The translations under genes were made by a program, and so were the position numbers. Under the pieces are notes generated by a model. The model was not told the origin of the DNA. It was given only the letters and a program-made list of their open reading frames with translations, and ran no database searches. A stretch of 18,977 bases of DNA. Source: an uncultured Fibrobacterales bacterium. GTDB lineage: Bacteria > Fibrobacterota > Fibrobacteria > Fibrobacterales > CAWVXU01. The DNA lies in assembly GCA_963934255.1 (NCBI GenBank), contig CAWVXU010000052.1, forward strand, positions 1-18,977, given 5' to 3'. Positions 1,075-18,977 of this stretch are shown here, piece by piece; the first letter of the stretch is position 1; each line of letters opens with the position of its first letter.

Positions 1075-1076
1075 TT

Positions 1077-1652
1077 TTATCTCTTTAGTATAATTACGTC
1101 GTTGTTTATTAATTGATACTGACTTCCATCAGCGGTATCTGTCGCTTTATTTTGTCCATCAAAGTCTAATCTGTTGCCTGCAATACTGACCCAACCGATT
1201 TGTTTACCAGGTACTCCTACAACAAGTGCAAAAGGCTTCACTGGCTTGACTATCACTGTTCCAGAACCCACTAAGGCATATGTACCAATTTCATTTCCAC
1301 AAACTATTGTGGCATTGGCGCCTATTGAGCAGCCTTTTCTTAGGTTAGTTGGCTTGAATTCTTCTTTGCGCACAATAAAGCTTCTTGGGTTGATCACATT
1401 AGTGAAAACCATAGAGGGTCCAAGGAAAACATCATCTTCTACTTCAACACCTTCGTAGATAGAGACATTGTTTTGGACTTTAATGCCAGAACCCATTTTA
1501 ACATTGGGCCCGACAACACAGTTCTGTCCAAATGAACAATTTTCGCCTATGACACTACCTTGAAGTATGTGGCTAAAATGCCATACCTTGGTATTGTCAC
1601 CCAGTTGACAGTTGTCATCTACAATGGAAGTCTCATGCACAAAGAAAGACAT
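1077..1652 (-). CDS. wbpD: Hexapeptide-repeat N-acetyltransferase, WbpD/WlbB-like (191 aa)
   Basis: MSFFVHETSIVDDNCQLGDNTKVWHFSHI...CSFGQNC...KVQNNVSIYEGV...FLGPSMVFTNVINPRS...GANATIVCG. Start moved from 1748 to the ATG at 1652, which overlaps the upstream stop (TAATG). Confidence 0.9.
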   Translation of the reverse strand: MSFFVHETSIVDDNCQLGDNTKVWHFSHILQGSVIGENCSFGQNCVVGPNVKMGSGIKVQNNVSIYEGVEVEDDVFLGPSMVFTNVINPRSFIVRKEEFKPTNLRKGCSIGANATIVCGNEIGTYALVGSGTVIVKPVKPFALVVGVPGKQIGWVSIAGNRLDFDGQNKATDTADGSQYQLINNDVIILKR

Positions 1653-2686: not shown

Positions 2687-3957
2687 TATAATCTCCAAGT
2701 AGGGTTTTCTAAAACACCTTTTACGTCTATCAAGACTGATTGATCTTGTGTTGATATTTTATTAAAGTCTTCGCGTGATAATTCTAAAAATTGCTTGTGT
2801 GCAACTGCAACCACAAATGCGTCATATTTCTTATTTGATTCAAATGGATTTTCTTTTAATACACCGTGTGTATAATGCTTTTTGTGCTCTTCAGGATCTA
2901 CCCATGGATCATACACATCCACATTCGTACCAAACTCTTCTAATTCATTGATAACATCAACTACTTTAGTATTTCTCAAGTCAGGACAGTTTTCTTTAAA
3001 GGTGACTCCCATGACAAGGATATTGGCGTCTTTAATCTTTACGTCTGATCTAATCATGGCCTTTAAGGTGGCGTCTGCAATATATTTACCAACACCATTA
3101 TTGATTTCTCTAGCTGCGACAATCAGGTCTGGAGTATAACCAGACTCTTTGGCTTTTGATAATAAATAATAAGGATCCACTCCAATACAGTGCCCACCGA
3201 CTAATCCTGGCCTCATATTAATGAAATTCCATTTGGTGGCGGCTGCATCAATCACAGCATGAGTATCAATCCCTAGGTTTCCAAAAATGATCGCAAGTTC
3301 ATTCATCAGTGCAATATTGACATCTCTTTGTGTGTTTTCAATTACTTTCGCAGCTTCTGCAACTTTAATCGTAGGTGCTTTATGCGTACCCGCTACGATA
3401 ATGCTTTTGTACAATTCGTCCACAACTGTCGCTATCTCTGGAGTCGACCCTGCAGTGATTTTTAATATCTTGGTGAGAGTACGCTCCTTATCACCTGGAT
3501 TGATTCTTTCAGGTGAATATCCACAATAAAAACCTTCATTGAACTTCAATCCTGATACACGCTCTATTATCGGGACACACACTTCTTCAGTTACACCCGG
3601 GTAAACGGTCGATTCATAGATGACAATATCACCTTTTTGAACATACTGAGCTAAGGTCTCTGTTGACTTCTCAATAGGTGTAAGGTCAGGATGATTATTT
3701 TTATCAATGGGTGTCGGGACTGTCACAATATAAATATTTGCATCGCGTAACTCATTCAAATCACAAGTGAGCCTCAGTTGTTTGGCGCTTTGTAATTCTT
3801 CTTTATTTGTCTCTAGAGTTCGATCATATCCTGTTTTTAATTCATCAACACGCTCTGCATTAATGTCAAAACCAACAGTGTCAAACTTTTTGCCAAATTC
3901 AACAGCTAAAGGTAAACCAACGTATCCTAAACCTAAAATTGCAAGTTTCTTATCCAT
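2686..3957 (-). CDS. wbpO: UDP-N-acetylhexosamine 6-dehydrogenase, WbpO/TviB/Gna type
   Basis: GLGYVGLPLA, IVTVPTP, IYESTVYPG, GYSPERINPGDK, KVAEAAKVIENTQRDVNIA, PGLVGGHCIGVDPYYL (catalytic Cys), TFKENCPDLRNTKV. ATG at 3957 preceded by AGGGAG. Confidence 0.88.
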   Translation of the reverse strand: MDKKLAILGLGYVGLPLAVEFGKKFDTVGFDINAERVDELKTGYDRTLETNKEELQSAKQLRLTCDLNELRDANIYIVTVPTPIDKNNHPDLTPIEKSTETLAQYVQKGDIVIYESTVYPGVTEEVCVPIIERVSGLKFNEGFYCGYSPERINPGDKERTLTKILKITAGSTPEIATVVDELYKSIIVAGTHKAPTIKVAEAAKVIENTQRDVNIALMNELAIIFGNLGIDTHAVIDAAATKWNFINMRPGLVGGHCIGVDPYYLLSKAKESGYTPDLIVAAREINNGVGKYIADATLKAMIRSDVKIKDANILVMGVTFKENCPDLRNTKVVDVINELEEFGTNVDVYDPWVDPEEHKKHYTHGVLKENPFESNKKYDAFVVAVAHKQFLELSREDFNKISTQDQSVLIDVKGVLENPTWRL

Positions 3958-4801
3958 TTTTATTCTCCCTAAAGTTTCTAATTGAGTGCCTGAGAAAGAC
4001 AATTGCGATTCCTAAAAACAAGCCAAAGAATGACCCTACAATTGCCATAATTAATCTTTTGGGGCCTGATTTTTTTGTGGCAATTCTCGGCTTCTCTATC
4101 ACCTGTAATATTTTCTGACCAATTAAAATACCCTTTTTATATTCTTGTATAATAAGGTCATTTAAAGCCATTTTCAAGTCATTTGAAGCGGTTTCTTTTA
4201 ATTTTCTCGTATAATATTTTATGGCTTCTTGATTTTGTTTTATTTCGTTACTTAATATTCTTTCAACCACAGTCTGTTTAAACAAATTTAACCAGTTGTA
4301 AGAAACTTTAGGGTCATCCGTAACACAAGTAATGATAAATTCGTCTGATGTCTCATCTGAACCAAAGCTAATAGAAATATGATTGTCTTTTAATTTTCTG
4401 ACAGCATCAAATCCTGTAATAGCTTTGCCACCCAATAATAATTGATTGCTTGTTGTATCAAATTCTGCCTCAGGATATAGTTCTTGTAAAAAACCATCCT
4501 TCTCAATAAATTCATAATACAAATCAATGGATCCGATAATGGGCTTATGCCTTGCTACATCAGAAGATACTCCAGCACCGACTCCCAATAAAGAACCCAC
4601 TCCACCTAGGTTGAGCTTTGCTTTATTTGACATGATTTTATAAACAATCCTCGAAGTATATTCATCCGGTTTAATTTTGGCGTAGGTACAAGTGATTACA
4701 ACTACAACCAGCCAAACGCCAAAAACGATTAGTTTGCTCTTCCAAATGTGAGCTATTAACTCAAAAACATTGATCTCTTCGCTTTTTAATTCTTGTTTCA
4801 T
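3950..4801 (-). CDS. wzz: Wzz-type polysaccharide co-polymerase / chain-length determinant (no kinase domain)
   Basis: N-terminal EEINVFELIAHIWKSK plus TM helix; coiled-coil-like middle; C-terminal proline motif KKSGPKR plus Gly-rich TM (IVGSFFGLFLGIAIVF). 283 aa with no Walker motifs. Confidence 0.85.
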   Translation of the reverse strand: MKQELKSEEINVFELIAHIWKSKLIVFGVWLVVVVITCTYAKIKPDEYTSRIVYKIMSNKAKLNLGGVGSLLGVGAGVSSDVARHKPIIGSIDLYYEFIEKDGFLQELYPEAEFDTTSNQLLLGGKAITGFDAVRKLKDNHISISFGSDETSDEFIITCVTDDPKVSYNWLNLFKQTVVERILSNEIKQNQEAIKYYTRKLKETASNDLKMALNDLIIQEYKKGILIGQKILQVIEKPRIATKKSGPKRLIMAIVGSFFGLFLGIAIVFLRHSIRNFRENKNG

Positions 4802-7048
4802 CTAATTAACCTTATCATCGATAATGACAATTGTCAGAATTATTGAAGCGATAGCCCCCATAGTCGATAGTGTTCCTTGCATAATTTCAGACCAACTAAT
4901 TGGTTCATCTTCTGGTTTATAACTTACTATAATCTTTGATCCTGGGGTAATAGGTTGCTCCATGTCCTCAGCTTTTACTTTAGTTCCATTTGCCAAAACA
5001 ACTAGCACACGGTCTTCGTCTCCATATCTAGTATAGCCGCCCGTATGGATGATATAATCATCATATTCAAAGTTCGGCTTCCACAAAACATCTCCGGGTG
5101 AAACTATTTCACCTAAAATTTGTACCGTATGTTGTGTTTCCTCAAGTACGATACTATCTCCTTGTTTCAAAGCTATTTGAGACCCACTTCCTGATTGTAG
5201 CGCCTTCTCAAAATCAATATAGATGGGGTAGGATAAATTATCTCTTTTTCTAAACAAGCGCGCTGCAGACCATTGGATATTTTCGCTGTATTGTGCAACT
5301 CTATTTACAAACTCTAATAATTTTTCACCTTTATACTGCAATGGATAATCGGCAGGGTTTAATACTGCAGAACCTCGAAGCCTCACTAGCTCTGGCTTAT
5401 AATACCCAGGGTCCTGAACAAGATGAATACGATCAAAAGGTTTTAATTGAATGTTTGATACTGAGTCTAAAAAATTCTCCGGACTGATCTTGATATTAAT
5501 AATCTCAACATTTGTCGTTTTGGTCATCCTCTGTAATACTATGCTTCCATCTAACCACTCCTTCGAAGCTCCCCCTGCTTTAAAAAAAAGGGTCTTGACA
5601 CTCATACCTGGAATATAATTGACTACTGTATCATTTTTTACAGCACCACCGATACTTACAGTGAACTTGAGTGTAGTATCAGCTTGACTTGGAATAAATA
5701 TACTATCGAGTGGTTCCATTCGAATATCTAAGTCATTACCCTCTGATTTCAGCGTGTATGATGTGTCAATGTTGTATCGATATACTTGTATGCCGGCCTT
5801 ATTGGCACCCCTACGCAGCCCCCCGGCTTGATTTATAACGTCTATTAATTTTAGCTCAGGAGTATAAGATACTTGTGTTTCAAAATGAATTTCACCCGAG
5901 ATTTTCACTATCTTTTCTAACGTTTTTGGGTTTGATTTGATCAAGATTCCATCTCCATTCATTAATAGAAGAGTGTCTTGGTCAGATATAATCAGATCAA
6001 GTTGGTCATAATCTAATTGATTAAAGTTTGATAGACCTTCTCTTCTTTTTATTGAATAAAACTTACTTGCTTCAGGTTTGACCCCCTGAGCTAGCTTGAT
6101 TAGGTCGTTCAAGGTTTCAGCTTTTTTTAATTCATAAATTGCAGGAACCTGGATAGATCCCTCAATTGTCACTAACTTTTCTGCAGCCGGAATATGAATA
6201 ATATCCCCGTCTCGTAAAGTGTGGATCTTCGGCATCTTACCTTCAAACAGATAATCATATAAATCAATTGTATATTTCTTCCTGCCGCGTTTAAGTTGAA
6301 TATTTCTGACAGATCCAACCTCATTGGGGCCACCAGCAAAATACAAGGCATTAAGAATTGAACTATTTCCTTGGATTACATATGCCGAAGGTTGTGCAGC
6401 ATTTCCAAGAACATAAACTTTTATAGAGCTTAATTCTTTAACCTGTAAAGATATTTGAGTCATCCCAAACTTAATTCCAGGGTTTGATATGGATAGCTTT
6501 TTGGTGATTAGTTTCTGAGCTCGACTCAGAGTGAGACCATTTAAACTTACTCGCCCGACTTCACTGACTAAAACATTCCCGCTTCTATCAATGACTAAGG
6601 TTTCTTCAACTTCCGTCCCACCCCAAATATTTAGGACTAATTTATCTCCAAACTTCAACGGATAATTAGGATCTACTTGATTAGAGGTTGCAGCAAATAA
6701 CTCTGGGTTTGCCAATTTAAACAAGGATGAAGAATATCTTCTTATCTCCATCATCGAATCATTTTGTAGATAATTAAATGCAGAGTCGCTCTCTCTATTT
6801 GCTTGTACCGAATCCAATAATTCCAGCTCAACTTCATTCTCAGTTCCAGCTCCATCAATGTTTTTAGCACTTTTTTTGTTTTCATAGTGTTTTCTTAGTT
6901 TCACTAGTTTTTCTGGAGACATGTTCTTAATGTCTGACAAATTATTCAGCGCACCCAATCCCTTTAAATCAGAAGCTGTTACCTGTGAAAATATAGTCAT
7001 GCAAAGACTCATAGTAAGTACAGCTATAATCGTATAAATTCTTAACAT
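4802..7048 (-). CDS. Large polysaccharide export protein (Poly_export domain plus multiple SLBB repeats; Wza/KpsD/OtnA-like OPX family)
   Basis: Hydrophobic N-terminal signal; YPLKFGDKLVLNIWG...IDRSGNVLVSEVGRVSLNGLTL; repeated V-x-I-x-G-x-V / AGG / GD-x-I-x-I-P SLBB units; C-terminal amphipathic helix WSEIMQGTLSTMGAIASII. GGAGAG RBS. Confidence 0.88.
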   Translation of the reverse strand: MLRIYTIIAVLTMSLCMTIFSQVTASDLKGLGALNNLSDIKNMSPEKLVKLRKHYENKKSAKNIDGAGTENEVELELLDSVQANRESDSAFNYLQNDSMMEIRRYSSSLFKLANPELFAATSNQVDPNYPLKFGDKLVLNIWGGTEVEETLVIDRSGNVLVSEVGRVSLNGLTLSRAQKLITKKLSISNPGIKFGMTQISLQVKELSSIKVYVLGNAAQPSAYVIQGNSSILNALYFAGGPNEVGSVRNIQLKRGRKKYTIDLYDYLFEGKMPKIHTLRDGDIIHIPAAEKLVTIEGSIQVPAIYELKKAETLNDLIKLAQGVKPEASKFYSIKRREGLSNFNQLDYDQLDLIISDQDTLLLMNGDGILIKSNPKTLEKIVKISGEIHFETQVSYTPELKLIDVINQAGGLRRGANKAGIQVYRYNIDTSYTLKSEGNDLDIRMEPLDSIFIPSQADTTLKFTVSIGGAVKNDTVVNYIPGMSVKTLFFKAGGASKEWLDGSIVLQRMTKTTNVEIINIKISPENFLDSVSNIQLKPFDRIHLVQDPGYYKPELVRLRGSAVLNPADYPLQYKGEKLLEFVNRVAQYSENIQWSAARLFRKRDNLSYPIYIDFEKALQSGSGSQIALKQGDSIVLEETQHTVQILGEIVSPGDVLWKPNFEYDDYIIHTGGYTRYGDEDRVLVVLANGTKVKAEDMEQPITPGSKIIVSYKPEDEPISWSEIMQGTLSTMGAIASIILTIVIIDDKVN

Positions 7049-8175
7049 TTACTCTCCAGAAATTTAATTATTCTATTGGAACTTTTTCCATCGCCATAAG
7101 GGCTATGTACTTTTGACATTGAGTTATACCGATCTTTTTCGTCTATAAGAGCACTACACTCCAATACAATCTTATCAAAATCAGGACCTACTAATTTGAC
7201 AGTCCCCGCTTTAAGAGCTTCTGGTCTTTCAGTAATGTTTCTCATAACAATGACTGGTTTACCGAGTGCGGGTGCCTCTTCTTGAATGCCGCCACTATCA
7301 GTTAATACAAAATGTGATTGATTCATGAGATACACAAATTCTTCATAGCCTAAAGAATCAATTAAATAAACATTTGAAATTTTCTGGAGAATTTGATTCA
7401 CCGGTATTTTTACATTTGGATTTAAATGAACGGGATAAACAAAGTCTGCATCAGTATATTTTTCTGCTAAAACTTTCACGGCTTGGCAAATGTTATCAAA
7501 GCCATTACCAAAATTTTCTCTTCTATGACTCGTGATTAAAATAACCTTTCGATTTTTATTAATCTGATATCCTGCTGAGGCAATTGTTGATTGGACTTTA
7601 TTAGAATGAAGGGTATTAGTTTCTGTCTTATGCAGAACTGAATACAAAGCATCAATCACTGTATTGCCAGTCACTAAAATGTTTTCTAAAGGATGCCCCT
7701 CTTTAATAAGGTTATTCGCCGCTTCTTGGGTCGGAGCAAAATGATAATCTGCAATAACATCCGTTAATTGTCGATTAGCCTCTTCAGGCCATGGAGATTG
7801 CAGGTTATATGTACGAAGACCCGCTTCTACATGACCCACTTTGACTTTTTGATAAAAGGCAGATAAGCTCACCGCAAAAGAAGTAGCCGTATCTCCATGT
7901 ACAAGGACAAGGTCTGGTTTAAAAGATTGAAGAATGTCACGCATCCCCAAGAGGACTTTTGCAGTGATGTCAAACAAGTCTTGACTCTCTTGCATAATAT
8001 TCAAATCATAATCGGGTTTAATCTCAAATAAATCAAGCACTTGGTCCAACATCTCACGGTGTTGACCTGTTACTGCTACCTTTGATTCAATCGTTGTGCT
8101 TTTAGCCAACTCTTTCACCAATGGCGCCATTTTAATGGCTTCAGGACGAGTCCCGAATACAGTCAATACTCTCAT
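7042..8175 (-). CDS. wecB: UDP-N-acetylglucosamine 2-epimerase (non-hydrolysing)
   Basis: VFGTRPEAIKMAPLV, VTGQHREMLDQVL, VLVHGDT, GHVEAGLRT, PWPEEANR, TGNTVIDAL, TSHRREN, LTDSGGIQEEAP, TERPE, PYGDGKSS. ATG 8175 preferred over TTG 8184. Confidence 0.93.
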   Translation of the reverse strand: MRVLTVFGTRPEAIKMAPLVKELAKSTTIESKVAVTGQHREMLDQVLDLFEIKPDYDLNIMQESQDLFDITAKVLLGMRDILQSFKPDLVLVHGDTATSFAVSLSAFYQKVKVGHVEAGLRTYNLQSPWPEEANRQLTDVIADYHFAPTQEAANNLIKEGHPLENILVTGNTVIDALYSVLHKTETNTLHSNKVQSTIASAGYQINKNRKVILITSHRRENFGNGFDNICQAVKVLAEKYTDADFVYPVHLNPNVKIPVNQILQKISNVYLIDSLGYEEFVYLMNQSHFVLTDSGGIQEEAPALGKPVIVMRNITERPEALKAGTVKLVGPDFDKIVLECSALIDEKDRYNSMSKVHSPYGDGKSSNRIIKFLESKC

Positions 8176-8194
8176 TTTACCCAATCATTGTAAC

Positions 8195-8221
8195 AAGGAC
8201 AACCTTTGCAGGGTCCTTTTT
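8195..8221. terminator. Hairpin (possible intrinsic terminator or structured leader) between the GT remnant and wecB
   Basis: Minus strand reads AAGGAC-CCT-GCAA-AGG-TT-GTCCTT (bulged stem, GNRA tetraloop); on the plus strand the stem runs into a T tract. Confidence 0.4.
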
Positions 8222-8281
8222 CTAACAAGAAAAATAAAAAACTTCCCTGCATATAACAAAAATATTTGTCTTATATGGACT

Positions 8282-8584
8282 CTAATCGGGCTCTTTGTGT
8301 CCTATGTCACTCTTTGTACTTTCGACCAAGGCGCTATACCTCTCCACACACCAAGACGCATCCTCTTCTATTGTGTCAATTTTTGGTAGTTTTGCCTTCA
8401 TTTCTGATAATATCTGTGGATTTTGAGCGATTTTACTCAATTTTAACGCTAATTCAGTCGAATTATTGACTTCGAAAAGTTCTCCTCCCAATTCTTGATT
8501 CACTGTTTCAGGCAAAGCTCCTACATGAGAGGCTATTACCGGCACTCCTTGCATCATTGCTTGACGCTCCGCAATAAAACACAT
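8282..8584 (-). pseudogene. C-terminal fragment of a GT-B family 4 (Glycos_transf_1) glycosyltransferase
   Basis: AMMQGVPVIASHVGALPETV...GELFEVNNSTELALKL...IEEDASWCVERYSAL matches the GT4 tail (EAmaxGxPVIaSxvGalpE). Only 100 aa, with an in-frame TAA nine codons upstream of the ATG. The N-terminal domain and most of the ExxxxxxxE motif are missing. Confidence 0.75.
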
Positions 8585-8630
8585 CTGATCGATTGAATCG
8601 AGGGTGGTTTATTTGAATTCATTTAATTAA

Positions 8631-8661
8631 TAAGGAGCTATTTATGTCAAAAGCGCGTTAG
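8631..8661 (+). other. Strong Shine-Dalgarno plus 5-codon micro-ORF (MSKAR*)
   Basis: TAAGGAG 8631-8637, 6-nt spacer, ATG TCA AAA GCG CGT TAG 8644-8661. Confidence 0.3.
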
Positions 8662-8767
8662 TTTCCACTATTTCATTAAAAATAAGGAAAAACTCTAAGG
8701 AATTTGGCATAATAATCCGAATCTATAAAAAGTAGATCGAGTTTTAGGTTACGGGGAAGGTAGCAAT

Positions 8768-9808
8768 ATGATTCATGTTGAAGATTGGACAGACAAGAGG
8801 GTTCTCATTACTGGAGTCTGCGGGACTGTCGGCGGGGAATTATACCGCCAACTCAAAGCTGTAGGACCCAAAAGTATTATTGGGGTTGATAATAACGAGA
8901 GCGAACTCTTCTTTTTATCTGAAGATGCACGGGGTGACGAGAACGTACACTTCTTTTTGGGGGATGTTCGAGACTCAGATGCCATGAACCGCTATATGCG
9001 CGGAGTTGACATTGTTTTACATACTGCTGCCCTGAAACACGTTTTTTTATGCGAAGAAGCTCCACGAGAGTCTGTTCAGACTAATATCATGGGTGTTCAA
9101 AACATTGTAGATGCCGCCACTCTTAATGATGTTGAACGCGTTATTTTCACCTCTTCAGATAAGGCTGTGAACCCTACCAATGTCATGGGGACGTCAAAGC
9201 TCATGGGTGAAAGACTTATGACTGCAGCCAACTCTATGGGAAACAAAAAAGGACCGATTTTCTCTTCTACCCGATTTGGAAATGTTTTGGGTTCACGGGG
9301 CTCGGTAATTCCACTTTTCGTTAAGCAGATTCAAGAAAAAGGCCGTATCACTCTTACGCACGAGGAAATGACTCGTTTTATCATGTCATTAGAAGAAGCT
9401 GTCTCTCTTGTGATGGATTCGGTTTTTATGGCCAAAGGTGGCGAAGTCTTTGTTACCAAGATGCCTGTTCTGAGAATCCTTGACCTCGCTCATGCGATGA
9501 TTGATATTTTAGCGCCTCGCTTTGGACTCAATGTCGAGGATGTTAAAATTGACGTTGTCGGAGTGAAGCCTGGTGAAAAATTATACGAAGAACTGATGAA
9601 TCAAGAAGAGGTTCGAAGAACTATGGAGCTTGACCAATACTTTGTAGTGACTCCTGCTTTTCAGGCTCTTTATAGAAGTGTAGATTATTCTTATCCGGAA
9701 GAAAATGAATATCCTCCCATTCAAGAGCCTTATAATTCTTCCAATCACAAACTCATGACCCAAGAAGAAATCAAAAACTTTCTTCTTGAAAACAAACTTT
9801 TGGACTAG
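8768..9808 (+). CDS. Soluble UDP-N-acetylhexosamine 4,6-dehydratase family SDR (Polysacc_synt_2; CapD/PglF/FnlA-like, MxxxK type)
   Basis: ITGVCGTVG, GDVRD, HTAALKHV, FTSSDKAVNPTNVMGTSKL, TRFGNVLGSRGSVIPLF, MTRFIM, GVKPGEKLYEEL. No N-terminal TM region. GGGGAAGG RBS. Confidence 0.88.
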   Translation: MIHVEDWTDKRVLITGVCGTVGGELYRQLKAVGPKSIIGVDNNESELFFLSEDARGDENVHFFLGDVRDSDAMNRYMRGVDIVLHTAALKHVFLCEEAPRESVQTNIMGVQNIVDAATLNDVERVIFTSSDKAVNPTNVMGTSKLMGERLMTAANSMGNKKGPIFSSTRFGNVLGSRGSVIPLFVKQIQEKGRITLTHEEMTRFIMSLEEAVSLVMDSVFMAKGGEVFVTKMPVLRILDLAHAMIDILAPRFGLNVEDVKIDVVGVKPGEKLYEELMNQEEVRRTMELDQYFVVTPAFQALYRSVDYSYPEENEYPPIQEPYNSSNHKLMTQEEIKNFLLENKLLD

Positions 9809-9816
9809 GAGTCATT

Positions 9817-10971
9817 ATGAGAGTTTTAATTTTAGGCGGTGATGGCTATTTGGGTTGGCCAACTGCTATGCACATGGCAAAACTTGGCCACGATGTCATG
9901 GTGGTAGATAATTATCTGCGCCGAAATATTGCACGGGATACTTCTTCTGAAGCTCTGATGGCTACACCCAATTTAGATAAACGCGCTGAAATTTTCGCTG
10001 CCGAAATGGGTTACACTATCCAGGTAGAAATTGGTGATTGTTGCGACATGCGTTTTATGGAAAGAATCTTCAAAGACTTCCAGCCTGAATCATTGATTCA
10101 CTATGCAGAACAACCTTCAGCGCCTTATTCTATGATGGGATATAAGGAAGCTTCTCTTACTTTTGATAACAACCTTAAAGCTACTTTTAATGTTATCTGG
10201 GCTGTTACTGAATTTGCACCAAAATGTCATATTGTAAAACTTGGCACTATGGGTGAGTATGGTTGCCCTAATATTGATATTGAAGAAGGTTGGATCGACA
10301 TTGAACACAAAGGTCGTTCTCAAAAATTCCTTTACCCTCGCCAAGCTGGATCATTATATCACACTACCAAAGTTTTAGATACCGACCTGCTTTGGTTTTA
10401 TGTTCGCACTTATGGTCTTGCGGTGACAGATTTGATGCAAGGACCTGTCTATGGTTTTGTCACTCCCGAAACTCAAATCAACGACGCACTATTGCCCAAC
10501 TTTCACTACGATGATATCTTTGGTACATTAGTGAATCGTTTCTTGGTTCAAGCTGTTGCTGGTGTTCCTCTTACTGTTTATGGACAAGGAGGTCAAACTC
10601 GGGGGTACCTGAATTTGAATGATACACTTCAGTGTGTTCAACTTGCTGTTGAAAAACCAACAGTGGCGGGTGACCTACGTATACTCAATCAATTTACCGA
10701 AACATTCTCCGTCAATGACTTCGCAGATAGAGTTGTTTCTGTAGGGAATCAAATGGGCCTAGGTGTTGAGAAAAAGTCTATTATTAATCCAAGAAAAGAA
10801 CCCGAGGATCATTACTATAACCCAGCACATAGTGGGCTTGTAGATTTGGGTCTCAAACCAACTCTTCTCACAGATGACATCTTAGGTGAAATGTTGACTA
10901 AGGTTGTCGAGTACAAACACTTGATTCAAAAAGACATGATTTTGCCGCGTGTTCGTTGGGATGATAAATAA
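9817..10971 (+). CDS. sqdB: UDP-sulfoquinovose synthase (SqdB/SQD1/Agl3 family)
   Basis: VLILGGDGYLGWPTA, HYAEQPSAPYSM, HIVKLGTMGEYG, PNIDIEEG, GSLYHTTK, TDLMQGPVYG, YDDIFGTLVNRF, PLTVYGQGGQTRGY, NQFTETFSV, NPRKE..HYYN. AGGAG RBS 8 nt after the upstream gene. Confidence 0.9.
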   Translation: MRVLILGGDGYLGWPTAMHMAKLGHDVMVVDNYLRRNIARDTSSEALMATPNLDKRAEIFAAEMGYTIQVEIGDCCDMRFMERIFKDFQPESLIHYAEQPSAPYSMMGYKEASLTFDNNLKATFNVIWAVTEFAPKCHIVKLGTMGEYGCPNIDIEEGWIDIEHKGRSQKFLYPRQAGSLYHTTKVLDTDLLWFYVRTYGLAVTDLMQGPVYGFVTPETQINDALLPNFHYDDIFGTLVNRFLVQAVAGVPLTVYGQGGQTRGYLNLNDTLQCVQLAVEKPTVAGDLRILNQFTETFSVNDFADRVVSVGNQMGLGVEKKSIINPRKEPEDHYYNPAHSGLVDLGLKPTLLTDDILGEMLTKVVEYKHLIQKDMILPRVRWDDK

Positions 10972-10995
10972 TATTTTTCACTTTTGGGTGAAAAC

Positions 10996-11032
10996 AAAAA
11001 AGGCTGAGTTCAAGTTGAACTCAGCCTTTTTT
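10996..11032. terminator. Bidirectional rho-independent terminator
   Basis: Perfect 18-bp inverted repeat AAAAAAGGCTGAGTTCAA-G-TTGAACTCAGCCTTTTTT with A6/T6 ends, between the convergent sqdB and 1373-aa genes. Confidence 0.92.
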
Positions 11033-11070
11033 ATTTTCAAATTAAGATTTTTTATTGGCAAACTTATGAA

Positions 11071-14000
11071 CTAGCCCGCCGTAGAGGGTAACTTTTGAAA
11101 TTGAGGATTCAAACTTTCAAATCTACTTTTAATTTGTTCCATCAAATGAATCACATCTTGTCTAGAATTCTTAGGGGCACGTTGATAAATCGCCACAGCT
11201 TCAGAATCTAAATAGTCAGCAGGCAAATGACAGCCCGTACTTAAATCAAATACTTTTTCACGGGAAGTAACATCAAAATTCTTATACCACCAGGGGTGAA
11301 GATTGTAAAGATCTGTTTTGGAGCGACGATTATTTTCAGGTTTTAAACCCCAGCGGTTTTCTTTAATTCTATACATAAATTCAACTTCTGAGGTTACTAC
11401 ACCTTGCCAACCGCGCTCACCTGCTTTAATCCAAAACTCCCAATCTTCACGGGTAAACATTTCACTATAACCATTGATATCATCATACATGGACTTCCTG
11501 TAGATCGCTGAAACTGGAGCCAGACAGACTGTCAACATATTGATAAAATCTTGTTTGAAATTATATTGAAGTTGGTTGACTGTAGGCCCGAATTGTAAAG
11601 TGTATGGAGTTATCCAGCCCACATCAGGATTATCAGCAAAGGTTTTAACCGCTGTCTCCAAATAGGTACTAGCAATTTGATCATCTGAATCAAGTATGCA
11701 AATGTACTCACCACGACAGGATTCAACTCCACGATTTCTCGTGTACGTCTTGCCTTTATTTTCATGTGTCAAAAGGGTAATCTTGTGATTAGGATACTGA
11801 GCTATTAGCTTTTTAGTGACTTCATAGGAGTCATCTGTAGACCCATCATTAACAATGATTAATTCCCAATTACTATAGTTCTGATTGATCACACTTGTAA
11901 TGGTATCTTCCATGTAGATACCTTGGTTGTATAGGGGAACTATGATGCTGACTAGTGGCGTCTGTTGGAAATTATGACGAGGCGGGACTTTTTCTACAAG
12001 AAGTTTTCTATAAAGATGAGCGACATTTTTGGATTGGCCTACGAGCGAAAAGAAACTAAGACAAAGGCTTCTTGCCTCCATGACATTTCCTTGAATTAAC
12101 TTAAGCAATGCTAATGTATAAAAGTGATATTCAAATAAATTGAGATTGGCAACCTTTTGAGTTTGCTTGACTTCATTCATCAATTCAGATACTCGGCCTA
12201 AATGATGATCTAATTCCTTAGCCAATTCTACTGATGAAAAGGGGTTGGACTTCACAAAACGTTCAATGTATTTCCACTTTACTTCAGAACTTTCTAAGAA
12301 GGTTCCTTCTTGGTTTTGATGTTCTAAGTTATTGTCGTGAGTAAGATATAAGCCAAGCTCTTCAGCGACATGATAGAGAGGGTACTTCTCTGCAATTCTT
12401 AACCAAAAATCATAATCACCTACCACAGTGTATTTGTCACTATAATAACCAATATCATCGTGAATACTCGCACGCCACATTGGTTGAGGGCCCACTTCAC
12501 ATTTTCGAAGTAGATTCATGTAACTATAGGGTAACCACTCATGCTTACGCAAGATATTTGCATCTTCGAATTTGCAATCTACATTATCTGTAATGATAGA
12601 ATTTCCGTATGAAACGGCACATTCAGGATGGTTATCTAATGCAGTTGCAAGTACTTCAAGACAATCAAACCGATGACGATCATCAGTATTTGCATTGGTG
12701 ATGTATTGACCTTGTGCTAATTTAATCCCACGATTCCATGCTGTGTAGAGCTTTTCACGATGAGTGTGAATATAGGTGATATTGTCATATTTTTCTAAAA
12801 ATTCACGAACTATGGCATCTTCATTTTCTGGTGAACCTGAATTGATGACCATAATTTCAATGTCTTGAGCAATGGATTGAGCTTCTAAGTCTTCTAGGCA
12901 TCCTCTGATGAATTTTTCTGAGGCATAGGTGGAGACTAGAGCTGTGACTTTGTAGTTTTTGCGGATAGCACGTTGGATGAGGCCTTCGATGTCTTGATGT
13001 TCAATATCAGTATTCACGAAAGAAGGTTGAGAGTGAATCGTGTATTGGGATTCCAGTGTTTTTAATCGTTCTGCTATATCCTCAAATAAAGGATCTATTG
13101 TATAAATCTCTCTTAAGAATTCTATTTCATAGCTTGGTAATTGCAATTCTTTTGACAAATTAGACTTTCCCAATAATTCAAATATTTGACGTTTAGAATT
13201 TGGGCTAATAACCTCTATAGCTCCAGCTTTTATAGGCGAAACCTTTTCACCTTGTAACTGACTCAATAAGAGTTGAATATCCTGTCGATGTGGTGAAATG
13301 TCAAGAGCACCTTTCAATAAATCTATGCTGCTTTGAGATTTACCCAATTGATTAAAAACTTGAGCCAGTAAGACATAAGCATCAATATGATCCACCTCAG
13401 ATCGGACAACCTTCATTAATGCCTGGTGAGCTTCACCATATTGCCCCAAGTGATACATTCTCTCAATATCTGTCAGGTCGGCCACATTTCCATTTTCCAA
13501 TTGAATAGAAGTTGGAGAGTCATTTGTTTTAATAATAGACTTAGGATTTATTTGGATTTGATGTTTTTTGTTAACAACACTTCCTTGAATTTGCTTTCCT
13601 AATTCAATGGCTTGATGATATTTTGGGTGTAATTTAAGTGCATATTCAAGTAAACTTAATGCTTGGATTTTATTAGACTTTTCAAATTCAACTCTAGCCC
13701 TAAGGTAATAGACCTCTGCAAAATAAGGCCAGATTTGGTCTAATTTATCCAAAGCTTTAGAGACTCGCCCATAATCCATCAATTGAAGAAATACTTGTGC
13801 CTCCAATAATTTCAGTTCAATATGTTCAGGCCATTGCTTAAGATAATTTTCTAGTTGACTTTGGACTTGACCAGCATTACCATCTTTAACTAAAGTTTTT
13901 AGTTTAAATATTTCACTTCCCAATTCAACCAAATTCAATGTCATGGGTTCTATTGCTTTTGGCATGACGAGCTTCGTCAAATAACTTTGACACATTGCTT

Positions 14001-15192
14001 CTGAAACTGGAAATTTTAATTTTGTATTACAAGCCTTCTTCAGCAAGCTCTCCCTGTGCTCTGGACGAAAGAGTGCTTCCCAGAAATATACAATTCCATA
14101 TTGGTGACTATTTTGAGTGCTAGCAAATACAGCTTGTAAAAAATCGCTTACCAAAGGTTTTGGTAATTCAGAGATTCTTTGGTGTACTTCTAGTAACTGT
14201 GTTTGGTTTTCTTCCCAACTAAGTTGACTTGATTCAACAAAATCTTCATAGAACGGGCCTTGAATCTGTGAAACAATAAATGGAACTAGTTTTTCTAAGG
14301 TGTTATAGTCTCGTAAATTTACATCGAATTCAATTTTTTTACTTAAGAGTTCTGAAGCATAACTATAAAGCTCAACTAAATTGAGTGAATCCATCACACC
14401 ACTTGAGATAAAATCATCCCCTAATTGAGGAGTATAATTGACCCCCCTTTGAAGCGCTACTTTTGAAATAAAATTCCCCAGTGATTCAAAAAGCTCTTCT
14501 TTTTTATTTAAGCTACTTCTACTCAATAATTCTAAATCATTCAGCACAAGTGAAGCGTAAGCCTGACTTTCAACATTTGGATCAAAGTCAACATCATATA
14601 CTCTTGGTGTTGAACGTAAATTCAAATTTGTTAGCCGACCTAATGGCTCCAAAAACAGATTGCTATATGTTTCTTTGATATGTAATTCATCTTCTTCTAG
14701 GTATTGAGAGGGCAGTAACCCACCTTGATCATACAGGTTTAATAATGGATCTAAGGTTAAGATTCCATTTTCAAGACACCAAATTTTCATCTCAGAATAA
14801 AAATGCTGTGATATTTTAATAATATCTTTTGTTTGATAAGGGGGAATGTTTACATTAGTCGCCTGTTGTATACTTATAGCCCATATGAAATTTCCAAATT
14901 GATTGAGCTCAAGAAATAACTCTTTGTAACTTGCACACAATTCTTCGAACGCTTTTTCAAGTCCTAAATGTGAAGATTTTCTTAGCATATGATGAATATC
15001 ATGGTTACCCACAAAAAGCACTTTCCAGGATTGTTCTTTCTCAAATTCATCTTTAATAAGTTGTGCCCCAGGATGATTGACCTTAAACCAATCCACAATG
15101 AAAGCGCCTACCCATTTCACCTTTACTGGCTCTTGAGAACACTGAACTCCTTTTTGAAAAAGGGAAACATGACTATTACCTATGATAAGCAT
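11071..15192 (-). CDS. Multidomain protein: SGNH-like / acyl carrier (PP-binding) / unnamed domain / TPR / GT2 / GT2 (1373 aa)
   Basis: aa1-185 IIGNSHV...VGNHD...DELH; aa~230-310 DDFISSGVMDSLNLVEL...DYNTLEKLVPFI; TPR-like helices aa~430-650; GT2 from aa748 (KVTALVSTYASEKFIRGCLEDL...INSGSPENE...AWNRGI...NANTDDRH...DYDFWLR); GT2 from aa~1079 (PLVSIIVPLYNQG...IIVNDGSTDDS...RNRGV...ILDSDD...EDWEFWIK). Confidence 0.88.
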   Translation of the reverse strand: MLIIGNSHVSLFQKGVQCSQEPVKVKWVGAFIVDWFKVNHPGAQLIKDEFEKEQSWKVLFVGNHDIHHMLRKSSHLGLEKAFEELCASYKELFLELNQFGNFIWAISIQQATNVNIPPYQTKDIIKISQHFYSEMKIWCLENGILTLDPLLNLYDQGGLLPSQYLEEDELHIKETYSNLFLEPLGRLTNLNLRSTPRVYDVDFDPNVESQAYASLVLNDLELLSRSSLNKKEELFESLGNFISKVALQRGVNYTPQLGDDFISSGVMDSLNLVELYSYASELLSKKIEFDVNLRDYNTLEKLVPFIVSQIQGPFYEDFVESSQLSWEENQTQLLEVHQRISELPKPLVSDFLQAVFASTQNSHQYGIVYFWEALFRPEHRESLLKKACNTKLKFPVSEAMCQSYLTKLVMPKAIEPMTLNLVELGSEIFKLKTLVKDGNAGQVQSQLENYLKQWPEHIELKLLEAQVFLQLMDYGRVSKALDKLDQIWPYFAEVYYLRARVEFEKSNKIQALSLLEYALKLHPKYHQAIELGKQIQGSVVNKKHQIQINPKSIIKTNDSPTSIQLENGNVADLTDIERMYHLGQYGEAHQALMKVVRSEVDHIDAYVLLAQVFNQLGKSQSSIDLLKGALDISPHRQDIQLLLSQLQGEKVSPIKAGAIEVISPNSKRQIFELLGKSNLSKELQLPSYEIEFLREIYTIDPLFEDIAERLKTLESQYTIHSQPSFVNTDIEHQDIEGLIQRAIRKNYKVTALVSTYASEKFIRGCLEDLEAQSIAQDIEIMVINSGSPENEDAIVREFLEKYDNITYIHTHREKLYTAWNRGIKLAQGQYITNANTDDRHRFDCLEVLATALDNHPECAVSYGNSIITDNVDCKFEDANILRKHEWLPYSYMNLLRKCEVGPQPMWRASIHDDIGYYSDKYTVVGDYDFWLRIAEKYPLYHVAEELGLYLTHDNNLEHQNQEGTFLESSEVKWKYIERFVKSNPFSSVELAKELDHHLGRVSELMNEVKQTQKVANLNLFEYHFYTLALLKLIQGNVMEARSLCLSFFSLVGQSKNVAHLYRKLLVEKVPPRHNFQQTPLVSIIVPLYNQGIYMEDTITSVINQNYSNWELIIVNDGSTDDSYEVTKKLIAQYPNHKITLLTHENKGKTYTRNRGVESCRGEYICILDSDDQIASTYLETAVKTFADNPDVGWITPYTLQFGPTVNQLQYNFKQDFINMLTVCLAPVSAIYRKSMYDDINGYSEMFTREDWEFWIKAGERGWQGVVTSEVEFMYRIKENRWGLKPENNRRSKTDLYNLHPWWYKNFDVTSREKVFDLSTGCHLPADYLDSEAVAIYQRAPKNSRQDVIHLMEQIKSRFESLNPQFQKLPSTAG
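14263..14505 (-). other. Embedded acyl carrier (phosphopantetheine-binding) domain; predicted modified Ser269 at 14386-14388
   Basis: DD-F-xxx-G-V-M-D-S-L-xx-V-E-L motif followed about 25 aa later by DYNTLEKLVPFI, the typical helix-IV pattern. Confidence 0.8.
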
Positions 15193-18100
15193 TATGAAGC
15201 CCTTTCTTCAAATAGTTCTTTATTTCGAGCACGACTAATTTTTCCACTACTCGTTTTTACCAAGGACATATAAGGCACCACTTCTACTAATTTGGGTAAA
15301 AGTCCAATTTCCAATTCTATCGTTTGTTGTACTCGTAGTATTAATTGTGAATTGTTTGTACTTTCCTGTGGCTCCACCTGAACAATTAAATCTTGAGATC
15401 CACTGTCTTGATTCTCTACACCAAAGCATACAACTCGTCCAGGGTACACACCACTGACACTAGATGAAACATACTCCACATCCTGTGGGTAAATGTTTTT
15501 CCCATTGACAATGATTAGATCTTTTTTTCTACCGGTTATAAATAATTCATTTTCATGAATAAAACCTAAATCACCTGTTGGATAAAACCCATCTATCATT
15601 TTATCTTCATTATCTAAGAAACGATCAAAGATACAAGCACCTTGAATCAGGACTTCGCCAACACCCTGAGAGTCAGGTTCTAATATCTGCACTTTCGTGT
15701 TTTCCATTATCGTACCACAGGAAAGTAATTTGACCTTATTTAATACAACTTCCTTAGGGGCAAATCTGAGATCGGTTTGAGATACGGCATAAGTGTTTTC
15801 AGCTAGGGCATAACAAACAGATAAAGCCTGCGGTTTAACTGATCGAAAATGTTCTTTAAAAATTTGATGCGTTTCAGGTTTAGCTGGTTCCGAACAATTG
15901 ACAAACGCCCGCATAGAACTCAAATCTTTGTCGTAGCATTTCTTTGCCAAAACATGATATGCAAAATTGGGGAGGTAACACAATGTTCCTTTGTATTCAC
16001 TAATTGTGTCTATTAATATTTGAGGTTTGGCTAACCAATGAAATGCATCCATCATCATAAATGGAATACCTTTCATTAAAGGCATTAAATAGCAAGCTAT
16101 GAGTCCCATATCATGATATAATGGCAACCAACTAACCAGTCGATCATTTGGGTTTATCTCCAATAAATTTGCGTAATGATCCATATGTGAAATAATTCCA
16201 CTATGCTTGAGAAATACAGCTTTCTGCAAACCAGTAGAGCCTGAAGAAAATTGTGCTAGTGCAATATCTGAATATACTACTTTATGTACTAATTCTCCTT
16301 TAACACTTTCTTTAGTTAGCAATTTTACACCTGTATTTTGTAAGTACTCAAAAGAAGATTGATCGGTAAAAACGCAGGTTGCTTGTGTGACTTCCAAAAT
16401 ATGTGTAATTTTTCTGTGATATTCTGATTCAGATATTTTTGATGTAAAAGGGCTTAATTGTGCTGGTTGAAGCCCAGCCTTCATTGCGCCCACATATGCA
16501 CTTAATAAATCAATGTCTGTTGTTTTTACAAATAGAATCAAACTATTTAATTCACAATGAGAAGCAAATAGTTCACTATAATGCTCTACCTTAATCCAGA
16601 ATTCTTGGCGTGTATGCTTTTCCCAATTTGAATTATTCCACAATGAAACACATTCAGCTGTTGGGTCTTGAGTCACCCAATGCTCCATAACATCAGGTAC
16701 CGTTTTAAAAGTTTTATTGATTTGTTCTGAAGCCTGTTTTGTTTTTATGATATTTAACTTGGGGAATAAACTCTCGAATTCACAAAAAGGAAACATTTTG
16801 AACACTCCTGATTGAGAACAATTAAAAACCAAATGCTTGTGTATTTGACAATATTCTCGGATTTCGTGGAGTTGATTGAGTTGAACATATTTACAACGAT
16901 CTACCTCATCTTGATCTACTTTCTTTTGAAAAACAGAATTCAAATTGTTTTCATTTATGTTTTGCAATCCGACTTTTGGCACAGCTATTCCTGCATGTTC
17001 AAAGCCTAATAGGTAAATTTCTTTACATCCCAAATGAAAGGATAACATCAATGCCAGATTCATTACATTTTGACCCCAAAGCGGAGCCGGTGTAGATAAG
17101 TTGATTTTTGATTGAATTGAAAAGTTTGAATCATAACTAAAATATTTAATATTAAATTTTTTAAATTCCGTCGAGTCAACTGTTGATTTTGCATACGAAT
17201 AGGGAAATAAAAATTCTGTGTCTAAATTTTCAAATTTCTTTAGCGTCTGAAGTGTTTTTTGGTCTGCTAGAACGTTTGAGGAATCAAGAGATTTAGGATC
17301 TGCAATTATATGATAATCTGGCTGAATTAATTCTAATTCTTCTTGTTGTCCAAATTCCCCTACTGAAATAACAATCTCATCTTTTAATGCCTTTAGATTT
17401 TGCTCTGAGATCAATTCCTCTGCCCCAAGAATAAATATTCTTCTTGCTTGGTGTTTTTGAAAATCTTGCAAAATTGGAACCACAGCTTTTTGTGGTCTTG
17501 ATGATTTTGAAAAATCCTTAATTTGTTGGGTTTCCCATCTTAATGGATCAAGCTGGGTAGGGAACGGCAAAGTACCTTTCCAGATTTGACCTGCTAATGC
17601 CGGGAGGTGTTGATCTAATACTTGTGCCTTAGTCCAATACGATTGGGCTTCATTAAAATCATTAATAGATAAGTAATAATGTGCTAAGCCTATATAGAAC
17701 ACACTATGATTAGGCCATTGGTAAATCATCTGCTTACAATGGTTTTTTAATTTTTGTGGATTTGAGCGAATATACACAGCGCACAAAATTTGGCTAACCC
17801 ATAAAATATCTTTACTCTTTACCAAGTAGGGTTCTAAGAAGGTTATTTGTTCCATTTGATAATTAAATACTTGGTATTGAATTTGTTTAAAAAAAGATTT
17901 CCAATATTTGGTCCTATAATATTGGCTTTTAGAGTGTTCTTGATCTAGCGATTCTACAGTAAAATATATAGACTCATAATTCAATGGAAAAACAACATCT
18001 GTGCTTACTGAATCTAGGTACTTTTTCAAGGCCGCTTGTGGATCCTGCTTATGTAGGATTAATCCCATCCAAAAGTGAGTCAAACCACAATTAATATGCG

Positions 18101-18977
18101 GTAGAGCGATATTTTTAACTACATCTAAATATTTCTGTAAATTTAAAATTCCTTGATGAATAATTCTTAAATGTGCATCCATCTCACCCTGGTAAGATTT
18201 TAAAAAATCATCATTTAACTCTCTGCATATTGATTCACAAAAGTTTTCAACCTCATCCTGAGTTGGACTTCTATTAATGTCACTAGAGATATCGATTTGA
18301 GGGATTTTATTCGGCTCGAAATCTTCGTTCAAATTACGAGGTGCATATGGGAAAATTGGAATTTTACTTTCTTCATTACAGTTCCAAATAATTTGATTAT
18401 TTTCTGAAGCATATCTCTCAATGGCGTGAAGCTGCTGTAACAAAACGTACATAGCTCTTTGAAATTGCTGAGTTGTCATTTTATCGAGAATCTCACGCTC
18501 ATGACCAATAGGTTGGTAGAAATGACCCTCAAATGGGTCAGTAGTAATTCCACCATTATCAAAGCCCAATAAACGTATGTCTGAAGCTCCCAAATACAAC
18601 CCCCACATCAATGAGCATGCAAATACATTTTGCGCCCACCTTGGGGCATTATTCTTAATATCTAGTGGCTCCGATTGTTGAATATGGGAGCCTGCTAGCC
18701 ACATTGCGTAGGTAATACTTGGGCGGTTTTTTTCGAGAAATTCACTCGCATATTTTTCTGGGAACAAAAACTGTAAGCGCAAATCTTTAGATTTTTCAAT
18801 TGCTGTTTCTAATACATTTGAATCGCCACCATCTTCTTTTCCCTTAAAAGCACTTGGATGAGCAATTAAATAATAATTGATATCAAGCTCACGGAATTGT
18901 GGATGCAAATAAAATTGATTGACACAAAGGGTATTTTTATCTTTGAGAAAAGTTAAATCAATGTTTTTGAGTGATGG
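15192..18977 (-). CDS. Multidomain protein (5'-partial): DUF115/Maf-like glycosyltransferase-type domain x2 / unnamed domain / TPR / FAAL-like adenylation domain
   Basis: Frame is open to the window edge (PSLKNIDLTFLKDKNTLCVNQFY precedes the track's TTG). DUF115-like repeat 1 (...LYLGASDIRLLGFD...HFY...IWNCNEESKIPIFP) and repeat 2 (RRIFILG...PDYHIIADP...HLGCKEIYLLGFEH...VFNCSQSGVFKMFP). C-terminal ALAQFSSGSTGLQKAV, SWLPLYHDMGLI, YALAENT, TGDLGF, GRKKDLIIVNGKNIYPQDVE, KTSSGKISR. Stop overlaps the next ATG (TAATG). Confidence 0.88.
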   Translation of the reverse strand, partial: PSLKNIDLTFLKDKNTLCVNQFYLHPQFRELDINYYLIAHPSAFKGKEDGGDSNVLETAIEKSKDLRLQFLFPEKYASEFLEKNRPSITYAMWLAGSHIQQSEPLDIKNNAPRWAQNVFACSLMWGLYLGASDIRLLGFDNGGITTDPFEGHFYQPIGHEREILDKMTTQQFQRAMYVLLQQLHAIERYASENNQIIWNCNEESKIPIFPYAPRNLNEDFEPNKIPQIDISSDINRSPTQDEVENFCESICRELNDDFLKSYQGEMDAHLRIIHQGILNLQKYLDVVKNIALPHINCGLTHFWMGLILHKQDPQAALKKYLDSVSTDVVFPLNYESIYFTVESLDQEHSKSQYYRTKYWKSFFKQIQYQVFNYQMEQITFLEPYLVKSKDILWVSQILCAVYIRSNPQKLKNHCKQMIYQWPNHSVFYIGLAHYYLSINDFNEAQSYWTKAQVLDQHLPALAGQIWKGTLPFPTQLDPLRWETQQIKDFSKSSRPQKAVVPILQDFQKHQARRIFILGAEELISEQNLKALKDEIVISVGEFGQQEELELIQPDYHIIADPKSLDSSNVLADQKTLQTLKKFENLDTEFLFPYSYAKSTVDSTEFKKFNIKYFSYDSNFSIQSKINLSTPAPLWGQNVMNLALMLSFHLGCKEIYLLGFEHAGIAVPKVGLQNINENNLNSVFQKKVDQDEVDRCKYVQLNQLHEIREYCQIHKHLVFNCSQSGVFKMFPFCEFESLFPKLNIIKTKQASEQINKTFKTVPDVMEHWVTQDPTAECVSLWNNSNWEKHTRQEFWIKVEHYSELFASHCELNSLILFVKTTDIDLLSAYVGAMKAGLQPAQLSPFTSKISESEYHRKITHILEVTQATCVFTDQSSFEYLQNTGVKLLTKESVKGELVHKVVYSDIALAQFSSGSTGLQKAVFLKHSGIISHMDHYANLLEINPNDRLVSWLPLYHDMGLIACYLMPLMKGIPFMMMDAFHWLAKPQILIDTISEYKGTLCYLPNFAYHVLAKKCYDKDLSSMRAFVNCSEPAKPETHQIFKEHFRSVKPQALSVCYALAENTYAVSQTDLRFAPKEVVLNKVKLLSCGTIMENTKVQILEPDSQGVGEVLIQGACIFDRFLDNEDKMIDGFYPTGDLGFIHENELFITGRKKDLIIVNGKNIYPQDVEYVSSSVSGVYPGRVVCFGVENQDSGSQDLIVQVEPQESTNNSQLILRVQQTIELEIGLLPKLVEVVPYMSLVKTSSGKISRARNKELFEERAS

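Follow-up and report, generated by a model that had tools for sequence, protein, structure and literature searches.

Can a ligase, a carrier and an acyltransferase be built into glycosyltransferase proteins so that a glycan is acylated in the bacterial cytoplasm? An 18,977-nucleotide contig of an uncultured Fibrobacterales bacterium (CAWVXU010000052.1 of GenBank assembly GCA_963934255.1; genome 2.67 Mb, 92% complete) raises this question. The window, by which we mean the whole of this contig (C52), carries two minus-strand genes: gene A ends in an adenylation domain, and gene B begins with an SGNH domain and a putative phosphopantetheine carrier. A preliminary description of the DNA had read them as coupled by a TAATG motif, and they are indeed two overlapping open reading frames (ORFs). 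It had also proposed an assembly line resembling nonribosomal peptide synthetases (NRPS), in which the same polypeptides assemble and acylate the sugar. With somewhat better than even confidence, we favor instead a three-domain cytoplasmic acylation cassette comprising the ligase, carrier and SGNH domains.

Results and Discussion

Distribution of the cassette

A representative search returned 63 related proteins at E ≤ 0.001, 33 of them at 1e-30. The order Maf-like, fatty acyl-AMP ligase (FAAL)-like, SGNH-carrier-TPR-glycosyltransferase is rare and recurs in at least six phyla. Sixteen genome loci were found in Nitrospirota, Desulfobacterota, Myxococcota, Cyanobacteriota, Sericytochromatia and Pseudomonadota, with a further 27 in metagenomes and another three in the host phylum; among the bacteria with the cassette is a named strain, Geomonas paludis Red736. 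The domains brought together in the preliminary description thus co-occur in other genomes. The stop/start overlap between ligase and SGNH genes recurs in most related loci, and the cassette of genome G001, although split over two contig ends, has the same order and overlap.

Presence of the ligase was compared with that of the carrier motif in 32 non-redundant loci, leaving out six metagenome loci too short for the carrier, G001 and nine near-copies. DSL was found in 23/23 loci with a ligase directly upstream and in 0/9 loci without one. A tree of the SGNH domain alone requires two changes (bootstrap range 2–3), so these are at least two separate losses and not 32 independent events. No ligase orthologue exists genome-wide behind the four ligase-less genome loci (best match 75 bits versus about 500); for the five ligase-less metagenome loci, absence was judged from the locus only. 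Within the host phylum, ligase and SGNH-carrier were found in the same five of 296 genomes, the 296 including one genome flagged as unpublished (G257). Co-occurrence and co-loss of ligase and DSL therefore strongly support loading of the carrier by the adjacent ligase, as first proposed. From these sequence patterns, the ligase very probably loads carrier Ser269 instead of coenzyme A (CoA). Ligase and SGNH-carrier identities also correlate (rho 0.81, 13 loci), a result set aside because shared descent explains it.

Ligase, carrier and SGNH domains

The adenylation domain at the end of gene A looks intact, as originally noted: an AMP-binding domain is found there, with the SSGST loop, TGD and a C-terminal Lys (presumably the "A10 lysine" of this domain). 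Its best PDB and NCBIfam matches are FAALs (E. coli FAAL 3PBK; MbtM-type acyl-ACP (ACP, acyl carrier protein) ligases), all below curated cut-offs. Bulky residues described as blocking the CoA pocket of the E. coli enzyme, W224, M231 and F279 (PMC8460268), are kept as W950, M957 and F1005 on alignment to 3PBK and are invariant in 16 aligned rows. Equivalents of the FAAL-specific helix motif and of Pro226 (P952) can be recognized at sequence level; FAALs are described with such a helix and a proline-lined alternative pocket (PMC8460268). The FAAL insertion, by contrast, is absent: the YxxAE-to-TGD spacing is 77–79 residues in 14/14 orthologues versus a hand-counted 106 in 3PBK, leaving the ligase ~28 residues shorter in this region. 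It is therefore classed as FAAL-like and not as a canonical FAAL, and its partner is an SGNH-carrier instead of a polyketide synthase or NRPS. Such a ligase bears on whether the CoA-blocking residues suffice without the insertion. Judged by ancestry, the substrate would be a fatty acid; replacement of two near-pocket glycines (NCSEP, YALAE) makes a short or polar acid possible.

Ligases of different phyla are 45–54% identical. The amino-acid adenylation model scores 76 against a cut-off of 317, and a family scan reported no condensation, ketosynthase or MBOAT family in either protein, in keeping with the preliminary description. The cassette fails membership of both NRPS and canonical FAALs. 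The "NRPS-like" label is overstated, since there is no condensation domain and the logic has stand-alone precedents in Dlt, AlmEFG and flagellin glycosylation islands.

Wider searches with the ligase returned only generic AMP-binding clusters from the protein atlas and one distant match, in an unrelated context, from plasmids. No orthologue was seen in 401 sampled genomes of the phylum of G043 (best 211 bits; three candidates scored per genome). An MBOAT-linked sister clade of ligases proved unsupported when four of the nearest ligases were read, their legible neighbors being lipid acyltransferase-like or housekeeping genes. Protein P0086 has two FAAL-like domains in tandem, and P0087 is similar in length and Pfam match. 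Second adenylation enzymes occur near the cassette in locus L032 (5454–7049, amino-acid type) and in L067 (9517–12773, weakly related, together with a separate short DSL-bearing frame).

Fold searches were based on a structure model of gene B residues 1–311 (pLDDT 89.6). Residues 229–311 adopt a four-helix carrier fold (PltL: Z 10.5, root-mean-square deviation (rmsd) 1.9, 82 aligned) with Ser269 at the start of helix 2, bearing out the predicted DSL carrier. The Pfam carrier score in gene B is only E 0.067, below cut-off; three relatives pass the PP-binding cut-off. In a 42-row alignment (the 40 of 63 relatives that span the didomain, the query and P0004), the carrier Ser is kept in 36/42 and DSL in 28/42. 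A phosphopantetheinyl transferase is present in the genome on contig C5. This sole match is one 585-aa frame shared with a D-cysteine desulfhydrase-like domain (L086, 1800–3557 of G000:C5).

Residues 1–191 of the same model gave an SGNH fold (Z 14.8, rmsd 2.7, 161 aligned), confirming the SGNH-like start of gene B and Ser7. Pfam and NCBIfam make no SGNH call on gene B, a PDB sequence search with residues 1–311 found no match, and the profile of alignment A1 matched TPRs only. Viral SGNH-like leads from the protein atlas were weak (0.76–0.77) and were discarded, and no relatives were found in viral contigs. Ser7 and His171 are kept in 42/42 rows and Asp168 and Gly29 in 41/42 each, supplying the block I Ser, block II Gly and block V Asp-x-x-His. 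His64 replaces the block III Asn in 40/42. Several other SGNH families are described as lacking this Asn too (PMC9487903), so superfamily membership stands by fold. One internal copy aside, all 41 aligned proteins begin directly with the first SGNH strand, indicating that there is no signal peptide, and no 19-residue window rises above hydropathy 1.46, excluding a membrane-length hydrophobic stretch. Both observations support the cytoplasmic location proposed at the outset. Two MBOAT queries gave no match across 46 loci, again as anticipated; two MBOAT genes lie elsewhere in this genome.

Maf-like partner and neighboring genes

The steady partner of the cassette is the Maf-like domain, to which the preliminary description gave no weight, and not the GT2 domains. 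Fourteen of 16 genome loci have a Maf-like gene adjoining or preceding the cassette, and this gene is kept after ligase loss; Maf-like and ligase domains are fused in the window, G001, L035, L036 and 18 or so other records. Gene A is ordered as Maf/DUF115, helical spacer, second DUF115 and adenylation domain. Its full-length protein passes the PF01973 cut-off and has the GT-A-like fold of DUF115. The best PDB sequence match of the DUF115 profile is the CstII sialyltransferase (E 8e-5; MptE E 1.1), and the model of copy 2 best matches Maf 5MU5 (Z 13.0, rmsd 4.2, 201 aligned), followed by MptE (Z 11.5) and CstI (Z 10.4). Context and these weaker matches led us to reject an MptE kinase reading. 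The resemblance to Maf flagellin glycosyltransferases (5MU5) and GT42 sialyltransferases (CstII) extends to the GNGPS motif of copy 1, the company of TPRs and a nearby cytidine monophosphate (CMP)-nonulosonate pathway; in contrast to those enzymes, the gene A domains are short (about 240 aa), duplicated, and fused to or abutting a ligase.

The anatomy given in the preliminary description is thus real overall, with corrections. Both DUF115/Maf-like domains are present, but GNGPS is kept only in copy 1 (read from a full-length record). Copy 2 has lost GNGPS as well as HFY and, judged by these motifs, is probably inactive. The two GT2 domains and the TPRs also exist; the family scan found no GT2 domain in gene A, however, and both belong to gene B instead of being spread over the two genes. 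Gene A is, moreover, incomplete in the window.

Recurrent neighbors of the cassette are NeuB-, SpsF-, PseG-, LegB- and PtmA-like, PIG-L and WbqC genes (SpsF being the label that we presume for its family). Flagellin genes follow the operon in eight of 16 genome loci (L022, L023, L025, L026, L028, L031, L034 and L037), of which four are ligase-less. With the recurrence of nonulosonate pathway genes, this context points to flagellin glycans that bear nonulosonates.

Proposed mechanism and alternatives

Adenylation domains form acyl-AMP, and the FAAL-like domain would do so from a carboxylic acid. The acyl group would then be loaded onto the phosphopantetheine arm at Ser269, not onto CoA, and passed by the carrier in cis to Ser7 of the SGNH domain, a step in place of the MBOAT and the tyrosine shuttle that Dlt-type systems use. 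Finally, the SGNH domain would acylate a sugar hydroxyl or amine, most likely of a nonulosonic acid handled by the neighboring Maf-like domain. The acceptor is most likely an O-linked protein glycan, in many hosts on flagellin, with the fused TPR-glycosyltransferase and methyltransferase domains acting as exchangeable cargo that builds the remaining glycan. Both SGNH transferases that form Ser acyl-enzymes and acylation fed by a carrier are established (PMC12148441, PMC4278540). Hand-over from carrier to SGNH domain and on to sugar is the weak link of the scheme, though somewhat more likely than not.

Several observations weigh against this reading. The block II Gly, kept in 41/42 rows, is of the hydrolase type; PatB and one OatA (S. 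pneumoniae) are reported to carry Ser or Asn there, a proposed mark of transferases (PMC12148441). Top fold matches are mostly esterases, including sialate O-acetylesterases, with PatB within about 1–2 Z units. Neither the block II replacement of PatB/OatA/DltD-type enzymes nor their exported SGNH domain with an MBOAT or AT3 partner is found here (AT3 was not searched). The SGNH triad is also intact in 9/9 ligase-less loci, and the ratio of nonsynonymous to synonymous substitutions is 0.08–0.31 in four of five pairs (one saturated). Its persistence under purifying selection after ligase loss indicates that the SGNH domain is independent of this ligase. The carrier fold, too, stays under selection in these loci; carrier identity falls below SGNH identity only without ligase (0.35 versus 0.44 in ligase-less pairs; 0.42 versus 0.39 with ligase).

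These features would suit an arrangement in which carrier loading by the ligase stands but the SGNH domain acts as a hydrolase, deacetylating a nonulosonate or glycan or editing mis-loaded carrier, while another enzyme transfers the acyl group. A precedent of sorts is the acyl exchange on flagellin pseudaminic acid via a deacylase proposed for Cj1295 (PMC3068675). We consider this unlikely. Clusters of neighboring genes include no other acyltransferase conserved across loci, the SGNH domain is always fused to a carrier, and PIG-L or DUF4910 genes able to deacylate are already in many loci; the block III His, moreover, replaces the usual hydrolase Asn. Under the transferase reading, the SGNH domain of ligase-less lineages would use another donor, such as acyl-CoA, and these natural variants offer a built-in comparison of donor use.

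The acceptor is less secure. Unfavorable to flagellin is the window itself, which has no flagellin gene and where the operon has Wza/Wzz and sugar-nucleotide genes as neighbors. Seven flagellin-family matches lie elsewhere in this genome, and flagellins occur in 15/15 searched genomes that carry the cassette (G699 with one weak match). Yet such presence says little because the phylum baseline is already high (140/296 genomes, 59/70 genera). A nonulosonate pathway lies on contig C56 of this genome, running toward the contig end; similar genes lie directly upstream of the ligase in G001, and this gene order, rather than a joined contig, suggests that C56 precedes gene A. Flagellin as the target is about an even call across hosts, and a poorer one for this genome. 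The same chemistry could alternatively act on the repeat unit of a surface polysaccharide, be it O-antigen or capsule, or on another non-flagellar glycoconjugate. Next to the window operon lie wecB, Wza-like, Wzz-like and diamino-uronate-type genes, and eight of 16 genome loci lack flagellin within the stretch read. Two opposite-strand genes nevertheless separate the polysaccharide genes from the operon, no such clusters recur in other loci, and a Maf fold with TPRs is described as the mark of flagellin glycosyltransferases (10.1101/2023.12.03.569772). This makes a polysaccharide acceptor distinctly improbable.

A sister strain further complicates the picture. A 14.9-fold contig of run X2 matches window positions 8000–13481 and then diverges, and an 805-aa record (P0089), 99% identical to gene B residues 571–1373, starts at the same divergence point. 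At this place the sister strain thus has TPR-GT2-GT2 but no SGNH-carrier half, which counts against the simple reading. No SGNH-carrier record was found on its 199,858-base contig in a word-indexed search of 8000 candidates, which is not proof of absence. Over the GT2 half and the genes downstream, this co-occurring strain matches the window at 99%, but different sequence stands where the window has the SGNH-carrier half. Because it carries the GT2 half alone, the cassette is a modular plug-in and not an integral assembly line.

In a scan of 31 relatives, GT2 or GT4 was among the five best families of at least 14, and others had TPRs, methyltransferases or WcbI. Free variation of the C-terminal cargo, together with the stand-alone TPR-GT2-GT2 protein, weakens the original proposal that the sugar is assembled by the same polypeptides. 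A true thiotemplated line would have the carrier as primer, with sugars built on a carrier-bound hydroxy acid and the whole acyl-glycan released or transferred by the SGNH domain. A releasing hydrolase would be compatible with the block II Gly, and a carrier can share one chain with seven or more transferase domains: the largest frame, L082 (3–14633 of G287:C210, open, at least 4877 aa), holds SGNH-carrier, three GT2, four GT4, methyltransferase and TPR domains. We think this very unlikely, given that giant transferases are kept in ligase-less lineages, that the sister strain has TPR-GT2-GT2 alone and that several cassette proteins have no detected transferase domain. Least credible is an ordinary acyl-CoA ligase beside a carrier that is a structural relic in incidental fusions, a view to which the missing FAAL insertion and the sub-threshold carrier score lend something, but which is hard to square with the strict linkage of ligase presence to DSL and the retained CoA-blocking residues.

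Returning to the acylation cassette, its widest version is doubtful in full. It would be a class of cytoplasmic, carrier-fed SGNH acyltransferases without MBOAT or tyrosine shuttle that add a possibly fatty acyl group to flagellin nonulosonate, are swapped between strains, plug into giant TPR-glycosyltransferases of up to about 4900 residues and have dropped the ligase twice, the SGNH domain staying in place and then drawing on another donor. In its boldest form, the glycan would be built on the carrier itself.

Relation to known systems

AlmG, the transferase of Vibrio cholerae AlmEFG, is not known to be an SGNH protein. By analogy, the cassette works like Dlt or AlmEFG yet fails membership of both. 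Dlt (DltA, DltC, DltB, DltX, DltD) likewise acylates a surface polymer by way of an adenylating ligase, a phosphopantetheine carrier and a Ser acyl-enzyme formed on an SGNH protein, but is described with an MBOAT, a tyrosine shuttle and an extracellular SGNH domain (PMC12148441). In the cassette, SGNH and carrier are joined in a single cytoplasmic didomain, the loci gave no MBOAT match, and a FAAL-like enzyme takes the place of the amino-acid ligase. In lipid A glycylation by AlmEFG, a ligase, carrier and transferase relay acylates an envelope glycolipid without MBOAT; its glycine ligase and other components are described as separate proteins not fused to glycosyltransferases (PMC4278540).

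Flagellin glycosylation islands of Enterobacteriaceae and Aeromonas place a carrier and an AMP-dependent ligase beside Maf and nonulosonate pathways, together with LuxE, LuxC and FabG, for which the authors suggest a liposugar (PMC4875605, PMC7874193). In contrast to the cassette, those are stand-alone genes of a different enzyme set, with no SGNH protein named in the portions consulted, and their chemistry is also predicted (PMC4875605, PMC7874193). The literature searched yielded no description of a fused SGNH-carrier or of the cassette, which does not prove absence, since subscription coverage was thin and supplementary tables of PMC4875605 and PMC7874193 may list relatives. A flagellin NRPS of Clostridioides difficile was looked for as well, without a hit, and carries no weight here. 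Carrier-fed SGNH acylation as known runs through a membrane relay, and fusion of SGNH and carrier would show that this relay can be reduced to three soluble domains. The cassette also offers a candidate transferase for the carrier and ligase genes of the flagellin islands, so far only guessed to make a liposugar, in a small soluble system.

Locus integrity and neighboring sequence

Gene A is truncated by the contig end, which removes its first 27 residues. They were sought on other contigs of the genome and not found. A 1288-aa full-length record, identical to the window protein at all but one of 1261 residues, supplies them. The A/B junction is bridged by contigs of runs X1 and X5 (two runs, two studies), and full-length A and B records are each present on contigs of 54,580 and 13,546 bases. 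A misassembly at the junction, raised as a concern in the preliminary description, is unlikely on these grounds. At least half of the window's words occur in three runs, all of them marine metagenomes from a single study. RNA run X6 covers only scattered short pieces of the window, which does not amount to expression. Coordinates of the features are collected in Table 1.

Table 1. Coordinates of gene A and gene B features in the window.
Feature	Position	Strand	Remarks
Gene A ORF	15192-18977	minus	1261 aa, open at contig end
First Maf/DUF115-like domain (CMP-nonulosonate transferase fold), gene A	18333..18977	minus	profile match to CstII; most of GNGPS motif beyond contig end
Helical spacer with one weak TPR, gene A	17538..18290	minus	TPR_2 E 0.0085, below cut-off
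Second Maf/DUF115-like domain, gene A	16758..17495	minus	PF01973 E 6e-7; model matches Maf 5MU5
FAAL-like adenylation domain without FAAL insertion, gene A	15195..16730	minus	W950, P952, M957, F1005, K1246 (window numbering)
TAATG stop/start overlap of genes A and B	15190..15194	minus	read from sequence
Gene B ORF	11071-15192	minus	1373 aa, whole
SGNH-fold domain from residue 1, gene B	14608..15192	minus	Ser7 (15172-15174), Gly29, His64 replacing block III Asn, Asp168, His171
Carrier domain, gene B	14260..14508	minus	DSL motif, Ser269 (14386-14388)
Conserved helical segment after carrier (QYG...W motif), gene B	13948..14259	minus	consensus of alignments A1 and A2; matches in related loci
TPR region, gene B	13243..13920	minus	family scan; strain-variable junction at about 13482
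First GT2 domain, gene B	12313..12951	minus	subtype common to many related loci
Second GT2 domain, gene B	11293..11958	minus	family scan

The stretch of contig C56 mentioned above (L085, G000:C56, 446–18428) begins with PEP-utiliser, gamma-glutamyl-CDP-amidate hydrolase-like, nucleotidyltransferase, methyltransferase and APS-kinase-like genes, which we take to resemble a methyl-phosphoramidate set. It continues with PseG-, cytidylyltransferase- and NeuB-like, DUF4910, carbamoyltransferase and two radical SAM genes.

In the window, positions 1–8184 (minus strand) encode wecB, Wza/SLBB, Wzz, nucleotide-sugar dehydrogenase, oxidoreductase, acetyltransferase and aminotransferase genes; by gene content, this is a surface polysaccharide cluster of predicted diamino-uronate type. 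A C-terminal remnant of a GT4 glycosyltransferase (about 100 aa, minus strand, 8282–8584) is probably a gene fragment. Between the converging genes, at 10996–11032, lies a near-perfect inverted repeat with A/T tails, on which a terminator scan made no call. A UDP-sulfoquinovose synthase-like gene (9817–10971, plus strand; 428 bits versus a cut-off of 575) stands behind a PseB-like dehydratase gene, and its presence hints that sulfoquinovose may be a component of the glycan.

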